Source: a virus (taxonomy: Duplodnaviria > Heunggongvirae > Uroviricota > Caudoviricetes). From it: 10,933 nt of DNA. The notes under the pieces were generated by a model. It had not been told where the DNA came from and made no database searches. It saw only the letters and a list, made by a program, of their open reading frames with translations. Shown piece after piece: positions 1 through 10,933 of this stretch. Both the position numbers and the translations under genes were made by a program. The stretch is taken from the IMG/VR virus record IMGVR_UViG_2634166457_000009; one strand, written 5' to 3'. Within the stretch, counting starts at the first letter, position 1, and every line of letters begins with the position of its first letter.

Positions 1-94
1 ATTACCCAGCGTTGCGGTAACCGTATGCGTGCCCGCTTTTTTGCCTTTGAGGGTGACATGCGCTTCGCCATTGGCCTGAGTGATGGCAATACCG

Positions 95-97
<3 letters not shown>
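1..97 (-). pseudogene. yeeJ: Downstream continuation of the yeeJ-like adhesin coding sequence, displaced by one frame relative to ORF 95..3682; continues past the window edge
   Basis: Reverse complement of 1..93 translates in the alternate frame to GIAITQANGEAHVTLKGKKAGTHTVTATLGN, the same Ig-like repeat pattern as inside the ORF (e.g. GVAIASLTGTLAGTHMITARLANSN). The main frame ends at TAA (97..95) immediately after an A4 run (plus-strand CTTTTC, 98..103). Confidence 0.6.
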
Positions 98-3682
<3,585 letters not shown>

Positions 3683-3873
3683 GCTTACCTTCCCTGAACG
3701 AGCTAACATAAATGCGCCCTTTCTAGCACAGCGAAAAAAAGTAAATCCTGATAGCAATATGATTGAAAATTAATAACTTTTCGTTAAGCAGTTTTGGGTG
3801 TGAGTTGCAAGAGGGGAGACTACTGAATTACTCAAGTTTTATAATCGAGGGGAAAATGGTGATGGCGTCCATA

Positions 3874-3908
3874 GCAAAACGCCCTCAACCATAAAGGTCG
3901 AGGGCGCT
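3874..3908 (-). terminator. Rho-independent terminator downstream of tRNA-Asn
   Basis: On the minus strand GCGCCCTC-(13 nt loop)-GAGGGCG followed by TTTT; 7-bp GC-rich stem at 3880..3886 / 3900..3906, about 90 nt past the tRNA 3' end. Confidence 0.5.
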
Positions 3909-3994
3909 TAAGATGTCAAAAACCCGCTATCCGTTAAAAAGCAATGCTCAACTAAGGTCAGTGACATTGCGCTAAAAAGCGAATTTTTAGAATT

Positions 3995-4070
3995 TGGCTC
4001 CTCTGACTGGACTCGAACCAGTGACATACGGATTAACAGTCCGCCGTTCTACCGACTGAACTACAGAGGA
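3995..4070 (-). tRNA. asnT: tRNA-Asn (anticodon GUU), 76 nt including CCA
   Basis: Reverse complement reads TCCTCTGTAGTTCAGTCGGTAGAACGGCGGACTGTTAATCCGTATGTCACTGGTTCGAGTCCAGTCAGAGGAGCCA, matching E. coli tRNA-Asn; anticodon loop CU-GUU-AA. Symbol asnT assigned from its position between yeeJ and mtfA. Confidence 0.95.
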
Positions 4071-4088
4071 ATCATGTGAACGGGGCGC

Positions 4089-4117
4089 ATATTACTTAGC
4101 GGTACCTTGTCTGTCAA
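4089..4117 (-). promoter_or_regulatory. Sigma70 promoter for tRNA-Asn with GC-rich discriminator
   Basis: Minus strand: TTGACA (4117..4112), 17-nt spacer, TAATAT (4094..4089), then GCGCCCCG discriminator; tRNA 5' end 18 nt downstream of the -10. Consensus -35, optimal spacing and GC discriminator are typical of stringently controlled tRNA promoters. Confidence 0.6.
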
Positions 4118-4170
4118 CACTAAATTTCATAAGTCATTTCAATTGGTTAATTAATCTGCAAAGTTGTTAA

Positions 4171-4968
4171 TTAATGAACATTCGTCGCCGAAAACGAGTC
4201 TGTATCATTAGCGTGATGCAGTCTCTGCAAAGGATCTTGTTGATAAAATTGGCAGAAACGTTGCCACAATGAAGGGAAACGAGGAGCAAAAAGTTCTGGG
4301 GCGCTAAAGAAATATTCAGAAAGTACGGCAAAACATTCAGCAGGATCACTGGCAGCATAAGCATCAATGCTCGCCGCATTCTCGCCAACCAATTCGATTT
4401 CTTCCTGAATGTTGTTCATTGCAGCATGAAGATCGTGTTCCCAGCCAGCAACCTCACGCAACGGAATAAAGGGAACTCCGCTGGCGCGATCGCCGTTACG
4501 GGTGTCCAGCTTATGAGCGACTTCATGAATAATCAGGTTAAAACCAGAAGCATCAAAAGAATCTTGTATATCCAACCAGTTCAAAACGATAGGCCCTTGC
4601 TGCCAGCTCTGACCTGACTGAACAATACGTTGGTTATGCACCAGACCGATATCGTCTTCCCATTCATCATCGACCACAAATGGCGCAGGATAAATTAAGA
4701 CTTCATGAAAACCATCCAGCCATTCCAGTCCTAACTCCAGAACGGGCAGGCAAAATAGAAGTGCTATCCGGCAGCTTCTTAATGAATCCAGTTCAAAGCC
4801 CTGTAAAGGAACAAGCCGCTTTTGCTGTAAAAAACGTTCGGCAAGAGTGACTAATTTGCTTTGTTCCTGTTCCGTCAGACACGTTAAAAGGGGGATCGAT
4901 AGTGCTTCCTGCCAGGGAAGGGCAGTTTGATGTGCTGATTCTTGTACTTTCCAGGGCCACTTAATCAT
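4171..4968 (-). CDS. mtfA: MtfA (Mlc titration factor A), zinc-dependent peptidase, 265 aa
   Basis: ORF track 4171..5007 begins at GTG; the annotated-like start is ATG at 4968 ([14 protein letters not shown]...). HEVAHKLD HExxH metalloprotease motif present. Located between asnT and serU as in E. coli. Confidence 0.9.
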
Positions 4969-5061
4969 CGTTTTGCTCGCAAACTCGTCACTTGAACAAA
5001 ATTGCACGGACAGGGACTGTTAAAATGCCAAATTTCCTGGCATCATGGCAACCATCTGAAC

Positions 5062-5151
5062 GGAGAGATGCCGGAGCGGCTGAACGGACCGGTCTCGAAA
5101 ACCGGAGTGGGGGCAACTCCACCGGGGGTTCAAATCCCCCTCTCTCCGCCA
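5062..5151 (+). tRNA. serU: tRNA-Ser (anticodon CGA), 90 nt with long variable arm and encoded CCA
   Basis: GGAGAGATGCCGGAGCGGCTGAACGGACCGGTCTCGAAAACCGGAGTGGGGGCAACTCCACCGGGGGTTCAAATCCCCCTCTCTCCGCCA; anticodon loop CU-CGA-AA; class II tRNA. The two plus-strand ORFs overlapping it (4992..5177, 5002..5268) are artefacts. Confidence 0.95.
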
Positions 5152-5196
5152 AAATTCAATCATTTACACATCATTAAGTCAGTGACAAAAATCACA

Positions 5197-5227
5197 CTTG
5201 GAATTACTTGGAATATTTTCTTGGAAT
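5197..5227. repeat. Three direct repeats of CTTGGAAT (starts 5197, 5207, 5220), candidate arm-type integrase binding sites of attL
   Basis: aCTTGGAATtaCTTGGAATattttCTTGGAATatt; spacing 10 and 13 bp, immediately prophage-side of the tRNA-Ser 3' end and overlapping the last codons and stop of int. Lambda attP/attL P' arms carry tandem arm-type sites in this position. Confidence 0.4.
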
Positions 5228-6229
5228 ATTATCAGGTAACGGGACATCAAGTGTTGGTGAAACTTTAACCTTTCTGTCATAGATTAGCACTTGCCCTTCG
5301 GTTTTGTGACCAGAGAAAAGTTGCTTATCCCGGCTGCTTCCTTCATAGTCTGAAATTCCTTTCGACTTCAGATCATGAAAGGTGAAGTCGGTTAAAATAC
5401 CTGAAATTTTTCCAGCACGATTTCTTGCTTCTACCCACATTTCGTTAAAGCCTTTGTACATATATCGGTTGCCGTATTGATTGCTGATCACATAGGCAGA
5501 TTTTGGTAACTGTTTTGCTTTTTCGATCGCTGCCTGTAATCGTGGACTCCATGCTTTTATCTGTTTTTTTCCGGTTTTCCCTTGCTGGATGAATATCCCG
5601 TCGTTTCCAATCTGTTCCCATTTCAGCGATAACACATCGGAAACCCTCGCTGCACACAGATAGGCAATTTCCATTGCGATAAAAACAGGAAGAGGCGCAA
5701 CGCTTAATACTGCCTGGTATTCCTTGTCGGTTATATATCGTTCGCGGTTTTTGGCCTTGAATTTACTTACACCTGCACATGGGTTAGCCTTCACGTACCC
5801 TCGCTCATATCCCCAACTGTAAACACGGGACATGCTGCTTTTTTCATGGTTGGCTTGCGTTTTGCTCTGTTCCCCTCTTTTGTCCATGTATCGACGGATG
5901 TGTTCTGGTTTTATGGAATCCGCCGGTACCTTACCGAATACGGCAAGCAACTTTTTCTGATGTTGCAGATAATCTTTTTGTGTTCTTGGACTGAGGTCAC
6001 TGTAACAGGCGCTGGTGAGGAATTTTTCCCACAATCGACCGAATGTCATTGCACGATCACGATTATTTACAGTTTCCTCATACTTTTTCCATAAAGCAGC
6101 TAAACCATCCTTGATGGCGGTTAGTGTTACAGATTCTCTGGATGTTGGTTTCCATACATAACTATATTTATTTGGGTATACATTTGGAGGTAATTTTTCG
6201 TGTTCAGGATTTTTCCTTCGTCTTCCCAT
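5204..6229 (-). CDS. int: Lambda-family tyrosine integrase (site-specific recombinase), 341 aa
   Basis: N-terminus MGRRRKNPEHEKLPPNVY resembles the lambda Int arm-binding domain; catalytic-domain landmarks AARVSDVLSLKW (Arg), QQGKTGKK (Lys), FHDLK, SGHKTEG, VLIYDRK (Tyr). ATG at 6229..6227 overlaps the upstream gene's TGA by 1 nt. Gene abuts a tRNA 3' end. Confidence 0.95.
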   Translation of the reverse strand: MGRRRKNPEHEKLPPNVYPNKYSYVWKPTSRESVTLTAIKDGLAALWKKYEETVNNRDRAMTFGRLWEKFLTSACYSDLSPRTQKDYLQHQKKLLAVFGKVPADSIKPEHIRRYMDKRGEQSKTQANHEKSSMSRVYSWGYERGYVKANPCAGVSKFKAKNRERYITDKEYQAVLSVAPLPVFIAMEIAYLCAARVSDVLSLKWEQIGNDGIFIQQGKTGKKQIKAWSPRLQAAIEKAKQLPKSAYVISNQYGNRYMYKGFNEMWVEARNRAGKISGILTDFTFHDLKSKGISDYEGSSRDKQLFSGHKTEGQVLIYDRKVKVSPTLDVPLPDNIPRKYSK

Positions 6230-6432
6230 CAGATCGCACCAAAATTCGGCTCTACCTCGCGTGGTGGTAAAGTTTTATTGCAGGTAAATAGATCCCGGCT
6301 GACAATCGGTTTGCCACTACGATTGGTATAGAACGGAAGCCCGTTTTCCATTAACCATTTTCGCTGGTGGCTTGCATATTTGCAGCCCGTTAATATTAGC
6401 AATTCATCTTCGGTTAAAAATAAGCTGCTCAT
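6229..6432 (-). CDS. xis: Small excisionase-like protein (DUF4224-type), 67 aa
   Basis: MSSLFLTEDELLILTGCKYASHQRKWLMENGLPFYTNRSGKPIVSRDLF fits the LT.EL..LTG....Q..WL...G.PF...R.G.P.V pattern recalled for DUF4224 proteins found beside phage integrases; stop overlaps int start (TGATG), indicating translational coupling. Confidence 0.7.
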   Translation of the reverse strand: MSSLFLTEDELLILTGCKYASHQRKWLMENGLPFYTNRSGKPIVSRDLFTCNKTLPPREVEPNFGAI

Positions 6433-6449
6433 AGCTATATCTCATAACC

Positions 6450-6475
6450 GCCGCTAACTATATACGGTTAGCGGC
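6450..6475. repeat. Perfect 9-bp inverted repeat (GCCGCTAAC / GTTAGCGGC, 8-nt loop) in the intergenic gap between the exonuclease gene and xis
   Basis: accGCCGCTAACtatatacgGTTAGCGGCaatt; no adjacent U-tract on either strand, so not a canonical intrinsic terminator. Confidence 0.5.
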
Positions 6476-6490
6476 AATTAGGGTTGAACA

Positions 6491-8932
6491 TTAAAAATCA
6501 GCCTGACTCGGGATCAGTTTTTGCCAGATAGCTGAAACGTATTTTGCCTGGTAACGAGCGTCATCAAGTGCATTATGGCGCTCACCTTCGAATGGGATAG
6601 CAGTTCTGGCATCGAAGTCTATGGCTTTCCCCAGCTCAACGATTGTGCGTACATCGCGATCGTTGCAGTAGCGCCACGGGCAGGGGATACCCTGTCGTTC
6701 GTATGAACGGCGTAAAATCACGTTGTCGAAGTTGGCCCCATTACCCCAGACCTGAACAAAAAATTCACCGGAGTTTTCGTCGATAAATTCCCGCAATTGC
6801 AGTAGTGCATCATCTAACGGGATTTCATCGGTCATAATGGCAGACTGCGCTTCACGTGATTGCTTCAGCCACCATTTAATGACGTCACGATCAATGACTC
6901 CGCCAGCAGTATCCAGATCGATGGTCTTGCTAAATTCCGGTCCCATATCTCCGGTTTGTGGATCGAAAAATATTGCGCCTATTGAGATAATCGGGGCATC
7001 GGGATTTTTTCCCATGGTTTCAAGGTCGATCATCAGATGAATCCCCGTTCTGCTGGTGGATGTGAGCTTATGATGACCATTCACCTTAATTAAGGGATCT
7101 GTCGACTCGCCAGTTTTATTATCGCTGGCGTGATGCTGATTGCCGCCAGGGTTCTCCTTGTGTGGATGTTCAGCGCCTTCCATTTCCTCCGTATCATTTT
7201 CCTGAACTTCAACCTGATTCTCTTCATCGAATGTTTCCTGGTATGTTGCGTCGCCCATCACCGCGCCACAATCAGGGCAGTTGCCGCCACCGCTCTGACC
7301 GCAGACGGTGCAGACTTTTTCCGGTTCCTGTTGCGCTACTGGTTCGGATTGTTTCGTTTCTGGCTCGTTTTGTAACGCATTTGGGCTGTTTTGTTCCGCT
7401 TTTTGGTCGTTCCGTTCCGATTCATGCTGGTTCTGGTTCACAGAATCGCGAGTCTGGATCCCCTTGACCCATTTCGGATCATTAGGGTCGCTAATCCCCT
7501 CAACAAATTCACCACGCGATACAGCAAGTAACTTATCGGCGTCAGGCTGGCTGATATTGGCTGCCTGCATAATTTTGTTTACTTCGTCAGCGGTGACTTT
7601 TACTTGGTTAGCGGAACTCACCTGCGACTGAGCATCCAGCGACTGCGCGTTCTGGCAATGTTCAGTTGTATCCGGTTCCATTGTTTCAGTTGTTGCCTGT
7701 TCACCTGCCATTGCGTCAGATGGTTGTGGTTTTTCTTCTTCTGTTTCACGCTCAGTAACCACCTCGCGGTTAATTTCTTCCAGGATATCTTTTTCCGGCG
7801 TATGCCGGGCAGCTGTGAGAGTTTCCTTGCTGGGGTTCTCGTGATCTGTTTCCGTCAAATAGGCGTTGATATACCCCTGAAGGCGTCCCGGGTAGTGATA
7901 AAATTCAGGGTGTGCGCTTCGGATAAGTGCAAAAATAGCGGCGCGGGAATAGTCCAGAATACCCGGGGTTGCACGAAGTGCTGCGGACCATTCTTTGAAC
8001 GGACTTTCTTTTTTCAGGACGACTTTTTTTGCGCGACGATAAACGCTGCCCGGAATTTCATAAATATTAAAATCCATCGGAAGTGTGGCTGCTGCAATCT
8101 CCACATCCAGTGTGTCGAGGGTGTGTACTAAATTCGGATTGCGATCGGTTTTGTTCCCACCGCCAGCATTAGCACCGGAAGCCGTGCGGGTGATGCGTGA
8201 AACACGATTTCCTTTCATCCACTCTTTTGTCAGCAGACCCCGATCGGTGTAGTCAGCGCCCAGGTATGCTTCGAAAAAAGCAGTCATCAGTCCCAGGTCT
8301 GAATTACCAGGATTAGGGAAAACTTTGTCCGTGTCACGAACCAGTTTGTGGAGATCGCGAATTTCCAGTGGTTCGAGTTGCGCAGCTTTATTTGAGATGG
8401 CCAGCGCGGTAACGGCGGGAAGTTTTTCATCCTGTGCGTTATGTAATGCGCGCAGTTCGCCCCGCGAAACGTGTGTGATCGGTTTTTCGCTGCCGTGCTG
8501 TGCCAGCCATCGAACAGGCAGAATCTGACCTGAAACCGGCAGGAGCATGTTCTCCTCAATCTCAGTCATGTCTTCGCCGTTGACGTTGGTATTGTCAGTG
8601 CTGGCTGGTTTGTCCTGAACAGAGGGCGAGGGTGCGATAAGTACCATTGTGATACCATCTTCCCCGCCTTTTTCGTATCGGTTGCAGAATTCGGTATCAA
8701 ACACGCCTTCCGGAGGAAGGTCATTCACAACGGGTAAATGGACGCGAACAGGTTTTTTAAAATCCTCTTCGTCAAATCCGGCATCGTCCATTGCGACAAC
8801 ACCGCGTGATATTGCAACCGATAATTTTTTTGCTGTGCGCCAGTAAAAACCGCCTTTAATCCCAAGACGTTTTCTGACTTTGTCATTTTTGGCTTCGTAA
8901 TATAGTGCAATTTCTTCTTTATCAGCGCTCAT
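6491..8932 (-). CDS. Large prophage exonuclease, 813 aa: RecE-like (exodeoxyribonuclease VIII-type) N-terminal and central region, C4 zinc-ribbon motif, acidic Q/E-rich linker, C-terminal DnaQ-like DEDDh 3'-5' exonuclease domain
   Basis: C-terminal motifs HLMIDLETMG (Exo I), VWGNGANFDNV (Exo II), ERHNALDDARYQAKY (Exo III, DEDDh). CTVCGQSGGGNCPDCG zinc ribbon. Segments such as NTNVNGEDMTEIEENMLLP and SRGEFVEGISDPNDPKWVKGIQTRD resemble Rac RecE as I recall it (not verified). ATG at 8932 with GAGG 9 nt upstream. Confidence 0.85.
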   Translation of the reverse strand: MSADKEEIALYYEAKNDKVRKRLGIKGGFYWRTAKKLSVAISRGVVAMDDAGFDEEDFKKPVRVHLPVVNDLPPEGVFDTEFCNRYEKGGEDGITMVLIAPSPSVQDKPASTDNTNVNGEDMTEIEENMLLPVSGQILPVRWLAQHGSEKPITHVSRGELRALHNAQDEKLPAVTALAISNKAAQLEPLEIRDLHKLVRDTDKVFPNPGNSDLGLMTAFFEAYLGADYTDRGLLTKEWMKGNRVSRITRTASGANAGGGNKTDRNPNLVHTLDTLDVEIAAATLPMDFNIYEIPGSVYRRAKKVVLKKESPFKEWSAALRATPGILDYSRAAIFALIRSAHPEFYHYPGRLQGYINAYLTETDHENPSKETLTAARHTPEKDILEEINREVVTERETEEEKPQPSDAMAGEQATTETMEPDTTEHCQNAQSLDAQSQVSSANQVKVTADEVNKIMQAANISQPDADKLLAVSRGEFVEGISDPNDPKWVKGIQTRDSVNQNQHESERNDQKAEQNSPNALQNEPETKQSEPVAQQEPEKVCTVCGQSGGGNCPDCGAVMGDATYQETFDEENQVEVQENDTEEMEGAEHPHKENPGGNQHHASDNKTGESTDPLIKVNGHHKLTSTSRTGIHLMIDLETMGKNPDAPIISIGAIFFDPQTGDMGPEFSKTIDLDTAGGVIDRDVIKWWLKQSREAQSAIMTDEIPLDDALLQLREFIDENSGEFFVQVWGNGANFDNVILRRSYERQGIPCPWRYCNDRDVRTIVELGKAIDFDARTAIPFEGERHNALDDARYQAKYVSAIWQKLIPSQADF

Positions 8933-9009
8933 TGATAAACCTCGTAACTATTTTTAGGGTGAACAAATCCCTGCCATTTCTGACATATAAAAATGAAACC
9001 GGATATTAA

Positions 9010-9213
9010 TTACGGTGCTGTTTTAAGTCCTGCCGGGACTTCGTTATTATCCATGCGAATAACTTTATCGACCGGATAACAGTTACCGGGAATTTTCTGT
9101 TCCGCTGCGGCAGCCATGCACTCTTTCATTGAGCCATATATACCAGTAACCACATCAACCGGTTCGCCCGTATTAAGAAAAGCAGTCAGAACGAGTGCGA
9201 ATGCTGTATTCAT
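9010..9213 (-). CDS. Hypothetical small protein, 67 aa, with hydrophobic N-terminus (possible signal peptide or membrane anchor) and two Cys
   Basis: MNTAFALVLTAFLNTGEPVDVVTGIYGSMKECMAAAAEQKIPGNCYPVDKVIRMDNNEVPAGLKTAP; start chosen at the internal ATG (9213..9211), which has AAGGA 8 nt upstream and overlaps the upstream stop as ATGA. The longer track ORF (to 9267) has a poor RBS. Confidence 0.5.
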   Translation of the reverse strand: MNTAFALVLTAFLNTGEPVDVVTGIYGSMKECMAAAAEQKIPGNCYPVDKVIRMDNNEVPAGLKTAP

Positions 9214-9398
9214 TGCCAGCGTCCTTTTTGCGTCGGGCGTAAACGGGCCAGCATTGAAGCAATACATATCTCATTTGATGAATCTGGCTCATGCTTTATC
9301 TGACTAATGGCATCCTCAATAAAGTTTTTATCGCCAGTGATAACGCCAATTTCAAAACGGGTCTCAGGCGTAGTGGAATTGAGTAATAACGTTTCCAT
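9210..9398 (-). CDS. Hypothetical small protein, 62 aa
   Basis: ATG at 9398 with GAGGA 9 nt upstream; stop TGA overlaps the start of the next ORF (ATGA); sits 10 nt downstream of the rha stop in the same operon orientation. No recognised motifs. Confidence 0.45.
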   Translation of the reverse strand: METLLLNSTTPETRFEIGVITGDKNFIEDAISQIKHEPDSSNEICIASMLARLRPTQKGRWQ

Positions 9399-9408
9399 TA
9401 TCGCGTCC

Positions 9409-9966
9409 TCAACGAGTAAATTTAAGTAACTGCTCTACGGTCATATTTTTAATTGCGCCCGGATTTACAAGAGTCCATCCCTGTTTTTCCAGATAAAAGC
9501 GGAAGGTATCCAGGGTGCAGACCATTGCGCCGTCAGGAACGGTTTCAGTGAATTCAACATTGCCGAATTTGTCGAAGTGAACAACCAGAGTGCGTCCATC
9601 TCCCGGAATAATTTTGTCAGCGGGTGGGGTATTATTCTGACGCAGCTCTGCCTCCATGCGGTCGAACTCAGCGATGTAGGCCTCTTTGAATGCAGCGGCT
9701 TTTTTACCAGTGAAGCCCATCACCAGGAAAACGAAGCCGTTTTTGGTGATTTGGAACATTGGGAGTTTGCGTCCGGTTGAGTCGGTGTATTCGCTCGACA
9801 CAAAATTGTGCTCAGTGAATTTTGCTGAACAGTCCAGATTGCGAATTTTATCCAACACTCGTTCGTGGCGTTTGCCAAAGAACTCGGCGATCGCAACAGA
9901 CGTAGTGACAGCGCGACCATTTTCGATGGTTACGTCAGGGTGAGAAAGGACAGGGATAGTAGCCAT
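9409..9966 (-). CDS. rha: Rha-family phage regulatory protein (Phage_pRha domain), 185 aa
   Basis: RAVTTSVAIAEFFGKRHERVLDKIRNLDC...NFVSSEYTDSTGRKLPMFQITKNGFVFLVMGFTGKKAAAFKEAYIAEFDRME matches the conserved Rha core. Start placed at ATG 9966 (MATIPVLSHPD...) with GAGG 8 nt upstream; the track ORF extends to 10260 but that extension contains a terminator-like hairpin. Confidence 0.8.
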   Translation of the reverse strand: MATIPVLSHPDVTIENGRAVTTSVAIAEFFGKRHERVLDKIRNLDCSAKFTEHNFVSSEYTDSTGRKLPMFQITKNGFVFLVMGFTGKKAAAFKEAYIAEFDRMEAELRQNNTPPADKIIPGDGRTLVVHFDKFGNVEFTETVPDGAMVCTLDTFRFYLEKQGWTLVNPGAIKNMTVEQLLKFTR

Positions 9967-10127
9967 GATGGCAGCCTCGTTAGTGAATTTGATTAACTCA
10001 CCACCGGAGGTAGCAATCTCATGGGTGGTGAGACGTACAGGGTTGCTACAACCGGTCACTAACGAACCCGGCCAGTCTTGCGACTGCCCCGCACGCCCCA
10101 CCATAATTTGAATGTGGCTGTGCATTA

Positions 10128-10160
10128 CGCATAAAAAAACCGCCTGAGCGCGGTTATGCG
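10128..10160 (-). terminator. Terminator-like hairpin with U7 tract in the leader upstream of rha
   Basis: Minus strand CGCATAA-CCGC-GCTCAG-GCGG-TTTTTTT-ATGCG: inner CCGC/GCGG stem (extendable by two A-U pairs) followed by seven U; outer arms CGCATAA/TTATGCG can also pair, leaving a 5-U bulge. Short stem, so weak. Confidence 0.3.
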
Positions 10161-10260
10161 CGTTAGTGAACATCGGGGTAGCAATCCCGGCACCCGTTTT
10201 ATGAGGTGCAGGTGCACTATAATTCCACCCGTTCTGGTTTTCAATAGCTACATTCAACAT

Positions 10261-10828
10261 TTTCTCTACCTTTCATCACCGAAGTGAACTTTGTTGATGC
10301 GGTGCCTGGTGCCTCCAGGTGACGTTAACCAGTTAACAATTAACGCCGGATACAGAGAATCCACCCATAACACTGTTTTTGGTTTTAACTGTTCCGCGTG
10401 CGCTTAGCCGCATTCACCGCATCACAAAATTCACTTTAAAAAGGGCGGCAGAGCAGTCACGGAGTAAAACTGATACCGCCAAACGTCACCAGAAAATTGA
10501 TAACAGAGGGCGTTGCAGCGGGGTTGTCACTTAAGCGTATGGTCAACCTGACAACCCGGTGTCCTCAACGGGGAAGGAATAACCACGCCATACTTACCGC
10601 CGCGCCATTTCGCGGAGTGCCACAACCGGAAGCGCACGGTCGACGAAAATTTAACGACAGGCTATCTATGAACCAGCAACCTCGCCGTGCGCTTTCGCGT
10701 TATGCTCTGACTTTTCAGAGAAATATCCTTTCAGTAAACTGTCAGTGCCGGATGTTCACCCGTGTCCGGCGCACGCACTCCACTTCACCCGTGGAGAACT
10801 CCTTAATTACCAACCCTCAGGAGGGTGA
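10261..10828. other. About 570-bp structured, apparently non-coding region between the rha leader and the next plus-strand ORF
   Basis: No ORF with a credible start/RBS on either strand: the 112-codon track ORF 10497..10835 starts at TTG and is Arg/Gln/Pro-rich, and minus-strand ORFs are under 27 codons. Contains a CCTGG/CCAGG hairpin (10305..10319), a GTTAAC tandem array (10324..10344), a GGCGG/CCGCC stem with U-tract on the minus strand (10438..10480) and twin hairpins (10747..10796). Confidence 0.4.
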
Positions 10829-10933
10829 ATGTTAAAATCAACTCTTATTGCTAAATGCCTTTATCAAAATCGCATGGTAAGCAGCATTTCAATAGGCGAG
10901 TCTGCAGTTAAAAGTATTTTCGAAGAGTACTTT
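10829..10933 (+). CDS. 5' end of an unidentified plus-strand gene (first 35 codons; continues beyond the window)
   Basis: AGGAGG at 10819..10824, 4-nt spacer, ATG at 10829; in-frame TGA immediately upstream; MLKSTLIAKCLYQNRMVSSISIGESAVKSIFEEYF open to the window end. Not in the ORF track because it is truncated. Confidence 0.4.
   Translation, partial: MLKSTLIAKCLYQNRMVSSISIGESAVKSIFEEYF

Follow-up and report, generated by a model that had tools for sequence, protein, structure and literature searches.

The yeeJ locus and its frame break

The window analysed here is the whole 10,933-nucleotide stretch of DNA recorded as the virus sequence IMGVR_UViG_2634166457_000009 (Caudoviricetes), and its minus strand carries the 5′ part of yeeJ, the gene for an inverse autotransporter adhesin of E. 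coli. As read in this stretch, the gene occupies 95..3682, i.e. 1195 codons followed by the stop TAA at 97..95. An initial reading made from the DNA alone (hereafter the sequence-only reading) had named the gene yeeJ, and the adjoining genes bear this out. A tRNA-Asn gene lies upstream at 3995..4070 on the minus strand (ARAGORN and RefSeq annotation of the matching region), and mtfA lies on the same strand at 4171..4968 (Pfam Peptidase_M90, 4e-60, and RefSeq annotation). This position beside tRNA-Asn (asnT) and mtfA is that of yeeJ on the chromosome, and RefSeq genomes show the same order. Window positions 1-4200 match E. coli chromosomes at no more than 98.7% identity; the features matched there are tRNA-Asn, mtfA and an immunoglobulin (Ig)-like domain protein that some records name yeeJ.

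In the 1195-amino acid (aa) product, Pfam places IAT_beta at residues 144-419 (4.6e-112), which is the inverse-autotransporter beta-barrel located N-terminal to the passenger, and finds 5 Big_1 and 6 Invasin_D3 stretches over residues ~420-1195. The repeats run out to the stop and correspond to about 7-8 Ig-like domains, in keeping with the figure of about 7 given earlier. YeeJ has been reported experimentally to carry an N-terminal peptidoglycan-binding LysM domain (Martinez-Gil et al. 2017, Sci Rep 7:11326, PMC5595812). A LysM search limited to the Pfam profile library (E<=0.05) gave no match in either the window product or the product of the intact relative described below.

The start at ATG 3682 agrees with the RefSeq-annotated start of WP_137473673.1. 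There are three in-frame start candidates for yeeJ, namely TTG 3757, ATG 3709 and ATG 3682, and pipelines vary in their choice (1204 vs. 1195 aa). The start of yeeJ in MG1655 has been argued to differ from the automated one (PMC5595812). Within the N-terminus (window 3400..3682), the residues …AATHLQVPAQ stand where WP_137473673.1 has …AATQQPVPAQ.

At the 3′ edge of the reading frame, the minus-strand codons ...GCA AAC TTT ACC CTT GAA AAG are followed by the stop TAA (97..95) and then by CGG; the list of open reading frames (ORFs) gives the corresponding minus-strand ORF as 95..3757. Past the TAA, the adjacent frame reads ...SNGIAITQANGEAHVTLKGKKAGTHTVTATLGN and is open as far as window base 1. 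Thus, both observations made at the outset, that the stop comes directly after GAAAAG and that the Ig-domain reading goes on in the neighbouring frame, are present in the sequence.

The source scaffold and its contig ends

Positions 16229..5297 of scaffold KQ241476.1 in the draft assembly GCA_001186315.2 (L002) match the window over its full length at 100% identity. Since runs of N flank the window on both sides (L002 4509-5296, 788 nt, and 16230-16857, 628 nt), the window coincides with a single contig of this draft scaffold. Window base 1 is a contig end, beyond which the next 628 scaffold positions are N, and the frame break lies 98 nt from it. In the source annotation, yeeJ is present as three calls around the gap, of 1204, 110 and 1215 aa.

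An intact near-identical allele

The assembly of another isolate, GCA_051592065.1 (L003), aligns to window 2..10779 at 99.97% identity (10,778 nt, 2 mismatches, 1 gap). Its yeeJ encodes an uninterrupted product of 2,677 aa, or 2,668 aa from the ATG that corresponds to window 3682, in which Pfam finds IAT_beta, 17 Big_1 stretches, 18 Invasin_D3 stretches and Invasin_D4. The 1195-aa window product is identical to the L003 protein at 1194/1195 residues, the last residue being K in the window and N in L003, and the shifted-frame tail of the window is identical to the continuation of the L003 protein.

In pairwise and four-way alignments with L003, the window has one base that is missing from the intact allele, at position 98 (C on the plus strand, G on the gene strand). 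On the gene strand, the window reads GAAAAGTAAC where L003 reads GAAAA-TAAC. This extra base breaks the frame and brings in the TAA directly after it, which would be an out-of-frame reading of G-TAA-CGG. The intact reading is therefore ...FTLENNGIAITQ..., not ...FTLESNGIAITQ....

Over ~15 kb, the source assembly differs from L003 at only six positions, five of which lie inside two repeat blocks of yeeJ. The sole difference outside these blocks is a single-nucleotide polymorphism (SNP) at window 10658, C on the plus strand (G in the L002 orientation, A in L003), 276 nt from the other contig end.

Two near-identical Ig-repeat blocks

The frame break lies in the first of two near-identical Ig-domain blocks of the passenger-encoding region. 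Copy A spans ~338 bp at window 1..338 (minus strand) and is 96.45% identical to L002 17192..16858. Copy B lies 609 bp downstream of copy A in the intact gene and forms the first ~335 nt of the next source contig. In L003, the two copies differ at 13 variant columns out of 338 (~96% identity) and have exact stretches in common of up to ~75 nt. The blocks are separated by ~273 bp, which the scaffold replaces with 628 N. Because the gap within yeeJ is only ~273 bp in L003, its size in the scaffold is overestimated.

The window changes from one copy to the other at the frame break. Upstream of window 98, all of the block is copy A, while the last 98 nt are identical to L003 copy B throughout. This contig-end tail (1..98, minus strand), in which the Ig domain is continued in the shifted frame, has copy-B alleles at all 3 informative sites (98, 55 and 1). 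L003 copy A is different from the tail at each of these (at window 55, the tail has C where L003 copy A has G), and BLAST alignments to copy A start at base 2.

Comparison of both copies in both assemblies shows how the discrepancies are distributed over the paralog-variant sites, i.e. the columns at which copies A and B differ. At the A/G site, L003 has GAAAA-T in copy A and GAAAG-T in copy B; the source has GAAAG-T in copy B, and its copy A reads GAAAAGT, with both bases. At the T/C site, L003 has CTT in copy A and CTC in copy B, while the source has CTT in copy A and CT- in copy B, where the base is lost. At the G/C site, L003 reads TGTGACC in copy A and TGTCACC in copy B; the source carries the copy-B allele TGTCACC in copy A and has lost the base in copy B (TGT-ACC). 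Finally, at the C/T site, which is the last base of the window, L003 has C in copy A and T in copy B, and the source has T in both, so that its copy A again carries the copy-B allele.

The errors are reciprocal: in copy A, an additional base at the A/G site is followed by two copy-B alleles, while copy B has two 1-nt deletions. These are found at L002 17091 (CCCT-GAAAG vs. CCCTCGAAAG in L003) and L002 17138 (CATGT-ACCC vs. CATGTCACCC in L003). All 5 of the 5 discrepancies in the blocks fall on paralog-variant sites, which make up 13 of the 338 aligned columns of the two copies in L003. By our own arithmetic, random placement would put all five on such sites with a probability of (13/338)^5, or ~8e-8. 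Together with the gap, the three 1-nt indels split the yeeJ call into the 1204-, 110- and 1215-aa fragments. The copy B deletions (within L002 16858..17262), which divide the rest of the gene into the 110-aa and 1215-aa calls, carry the same artefact signature as the break in the window.

Distribution of the lesion

Short stretches around the break were searched for in 5,426 complete E. coli genomes. None of them contains the window 61-mer, and 2,197 match it at 60/61. The 60-mer that lacks C98 (gene strand GAAAATAAC, reading LENNG) is found exactly in 845 of these genomes, whereas the 60-mer with one A dropped, which is the repair proposed in the sequence-only reading (LESNG), is found in 0. 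In one complete genome (L001), GAAAATAAC is present in both copies.

A 36-mer of the window around the break has no exact match in one-genome-per-species contigs or in JGI metagenome contigs. At the protein level, the truncated 1204-aa product (source start ATG 3709) is recorded from the source assembly only. The 1195-aa version from ATG 3682 had no exact match on record, the source annotation beginning at ATG 3709. Among the data scanned, the lesion is unique to one assembly.

Origin of the frame break

We consider the frame break to be a mixed-paralog consensus error at a contig end and not a real truncation of the adhesin, with a probability of roughly 0.9. It is very unlikely to be a biological feature and holds no biological novelty. 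The yeeJ gene of the source strain is most likely intact and about 2,670 aa in length, near the length expected for the long UMN026-type variant. The repaired gene would equal the L003 product, which is close to the length of MG1655 YeeJ plus the 906-bp insert (PMC5595812); the assignment to the long type is made by length only.

The draft assembly broke at the two blocks: contig 1, which is the window, finishes in copy A and contig 2 begins in copy B. The assembler failed to resolve these 96%-identical blocks, and reads of both copies would then have been pooled for the consensus at both contig ends. At the A/G site of copy A, the caller may have put in both variant bases, giving GAAAAGTAAC and the additional base at window 98. 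At other variant columns, the base of the wrong copy would have been written, as at positions 55 and 1 of the window, or the column would have been left empty, as at both copy B deletions. If so, the true sequences would be CTTGAAAATAAC and CATGTGACC for copy A, and CTCGAAAGTAAC and CATGTCACC for copy B. One conceivable route is run-length averaging in flow space (454 or Ion-type platforms), which would give all three indels: A 3.5->4 and G 0.5->1 at the doubled site, C 0.5->0 at the T/C site and G/C 0.5/0.5->0/0 at the G/C site.

Several points weigh against a consensus error. L003 is a different isolate, and a private mutation in the source strain is therefore formally possible. The case against the base calls at 95..105 is built from assemblies and is in that sense indirect. 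Furthermore, the exact route to the error, flow-space averaging included, is inferred. Finally, real yeeJ frameshifts may be present in other E. coli strains: among 96 complete genomes, yeeJ was intact in 38 and frame-shifted in 15 more (PMC5595812), which lends some support to a genuine frameshift here.

Such a genuine, strain-specific frameshift would make yeeJ a pseudogene in the source strain, its 1195-aa product retaining the beta-barrel plus about 7-8 Ig-like domains and lacking both the distal domains and the C-terminal cap. Inactivated adhesin genes are common among E. coli lineages, and the break is there in the deposited sequence. We nevertheless regard this reading as unlikely. The allele was found in one draft assembly only, and not in the complete genomes, the two contig collections or a gene-position index, and the 99.97%-identical isolate is intact. 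The lesion also lies 98 nt from a contig end and beside a scaffold gap, exactly on a paralog-variant site and with both variant bases present. In addition, the partner copy has two further indels on paralog-variant sites, and three independent real indels of this kind are very improbable. If the break were real, it would add one more private yeeJ pseudogene. A true pseudogene of the Shigella type had been suspected because no complete E. coli genome exceeds ~98.7% identity over yeeJ; this idea was given up in view of the intact L003 gene.

Gene conversion or recombination between the repeats was also considered. It would fit the tail with its copy-B alleles; neither the doubled base nor the loss of two bases from copy B would follow from it. 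The doubled A and G is not a product of either process, because either would leave A or G. An extended form of this idea strikes us as very unlikely: the extra G would be real, left by a slip at the junction when the two Ig-repeat copies underwent illegitimate recombination or gene conversion, and the strain would make a truncated 1195-aa YeeJ that has the barrel and about 7-8 Ig domains and is missing the distal passenger. If it were true, repeat-mediated inactivation would be a recurrent way to switch off the YeeJ adhesin.

The sequence-only reading had placed the 1-nt shift at an A4/T4 homopolymer and had offered a pseudogenising indel or a homopolymer error as its cause. The shift of 1 nt stands, but not its location in the run: the run in question (T4 on the plus strand, A4 on the gene strand, 99..102) has the same length in the intact copy A of L003, which reads CTTGAAAATAAC at this point, and the extra base is the G that follows it. 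A plain length miscall of A3 as A4, of the type made by flow-based or long-read platforms and independent of the repeat, is highly improbable. The break does adjoin the run, and dropping one A does restore a single frame, but the A3 form is exact in 0 of the 5,426 genomes, against 845 for the G-less one. Moreover, window 99..10779 has 192 runs of at least 4 nt, 69 of at least 5 nt and 15 of at least 6 nt, and 0 of these runs differ in length from L003. The two other indels of the assembly also lie outside homopolymers, in CT[C]GAAA and TGT[C]ACC. Of the two causes first offered, an error is thus favoured, though not by a homopolymer mechanism, and the pseudogene is unsupported.

Phase-variable or programmed frameshifting at the A-run, which would switch between a short and a full-length adhesin, is hardly credible: a short A-run beside the break is all that speaks for it, known slipped-strand contingency tracts are much longer than 4 nt, the shifted allele is in 0 complete genomes, the length of the run is not what differs, and the mixed A-run lengths that it would call for are absent at assembly level.

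Relation to published cases

Martinez-Gil et al. caution that the yeeJ frame-shifts of published genomes may stem from faulty sequencing or assembly, and they cite the misassembled repetitive upaH gene of strain CFT073 as a precedent (PMC5595812, its ref. 73). The same general caution has been expressed for the tandem Ig repeats of inverse autotransporters (Goh et al. 2019, PMC6714894).

The frame-shifted yeeJ copies of that survey resemble the present one in gene and locus (the asnT-mtfA side) and in their apparent truncation within the repetitive Big_1 passenger region (PMC5595812). They differ in that the 15 were left unresolved there, whereas here the sequence itself argues for an artefact: the break is close to a contig end, the discrepancies fall on paralog-variant sites, the partner copy has reciprocal indels and a near-identical isolate is intact. 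In the case of upaH of CFT073, a large repeat-rich adhesin gene was likewise called frame-shifted and truncated through an assembly error among near-identical tandem repeats, and the real upaH is full length and expressed. However, UpaH is a classical (type Va) autotransporter from a finished genome, while YeeJ is a type Ve inverse autotransporter and the present copy comes from a draft scaffold. In addition, the error in upaH was a misassembly of repeat number and not a 1-nt consensus indel as proposed here.

The relevance of the present case is to quality control, since breaks like this inflate the number of large repeat adhesins (such as those of yeeJ and upaH) that are scored as "truncated" or "pseudogenised" in draft assemblies. 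A break close to a contig end, indels that fall on paralog-variant sites and reciprocal errors in the other copy together provide a reusable filter that needs only the assembled sequence.

Other features of the window

Beyond mtfA, the window contains one end of a lambdoid (Rac-like) prophage (5062..10260), which adjoins a tRNA-Ser gene (5062..5151; ARAGORN). An ORF of 112 codons that begins with TTG (10497..10835, plus strand) lies in the region on the immunity side of the prophage. It has neither a Pfam match nor a gene call in the source annotation and is probably not a gene. The prophage genes include those for a DUF4224 protein (6229..6432), a RecE-type exonuclease VIII (6491..8932), a DUF1482 protein, listed between the exonuclease and DicB, DicB itself (9210..9398) and a Rha/ASH protein (9409..10260). 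Next to the tRNA-Ser gene, the 341-aa integrase (5204..6229) is intact in the window, whereas the annotation of the complete genome MLI106K3 gives it as frameshifted.
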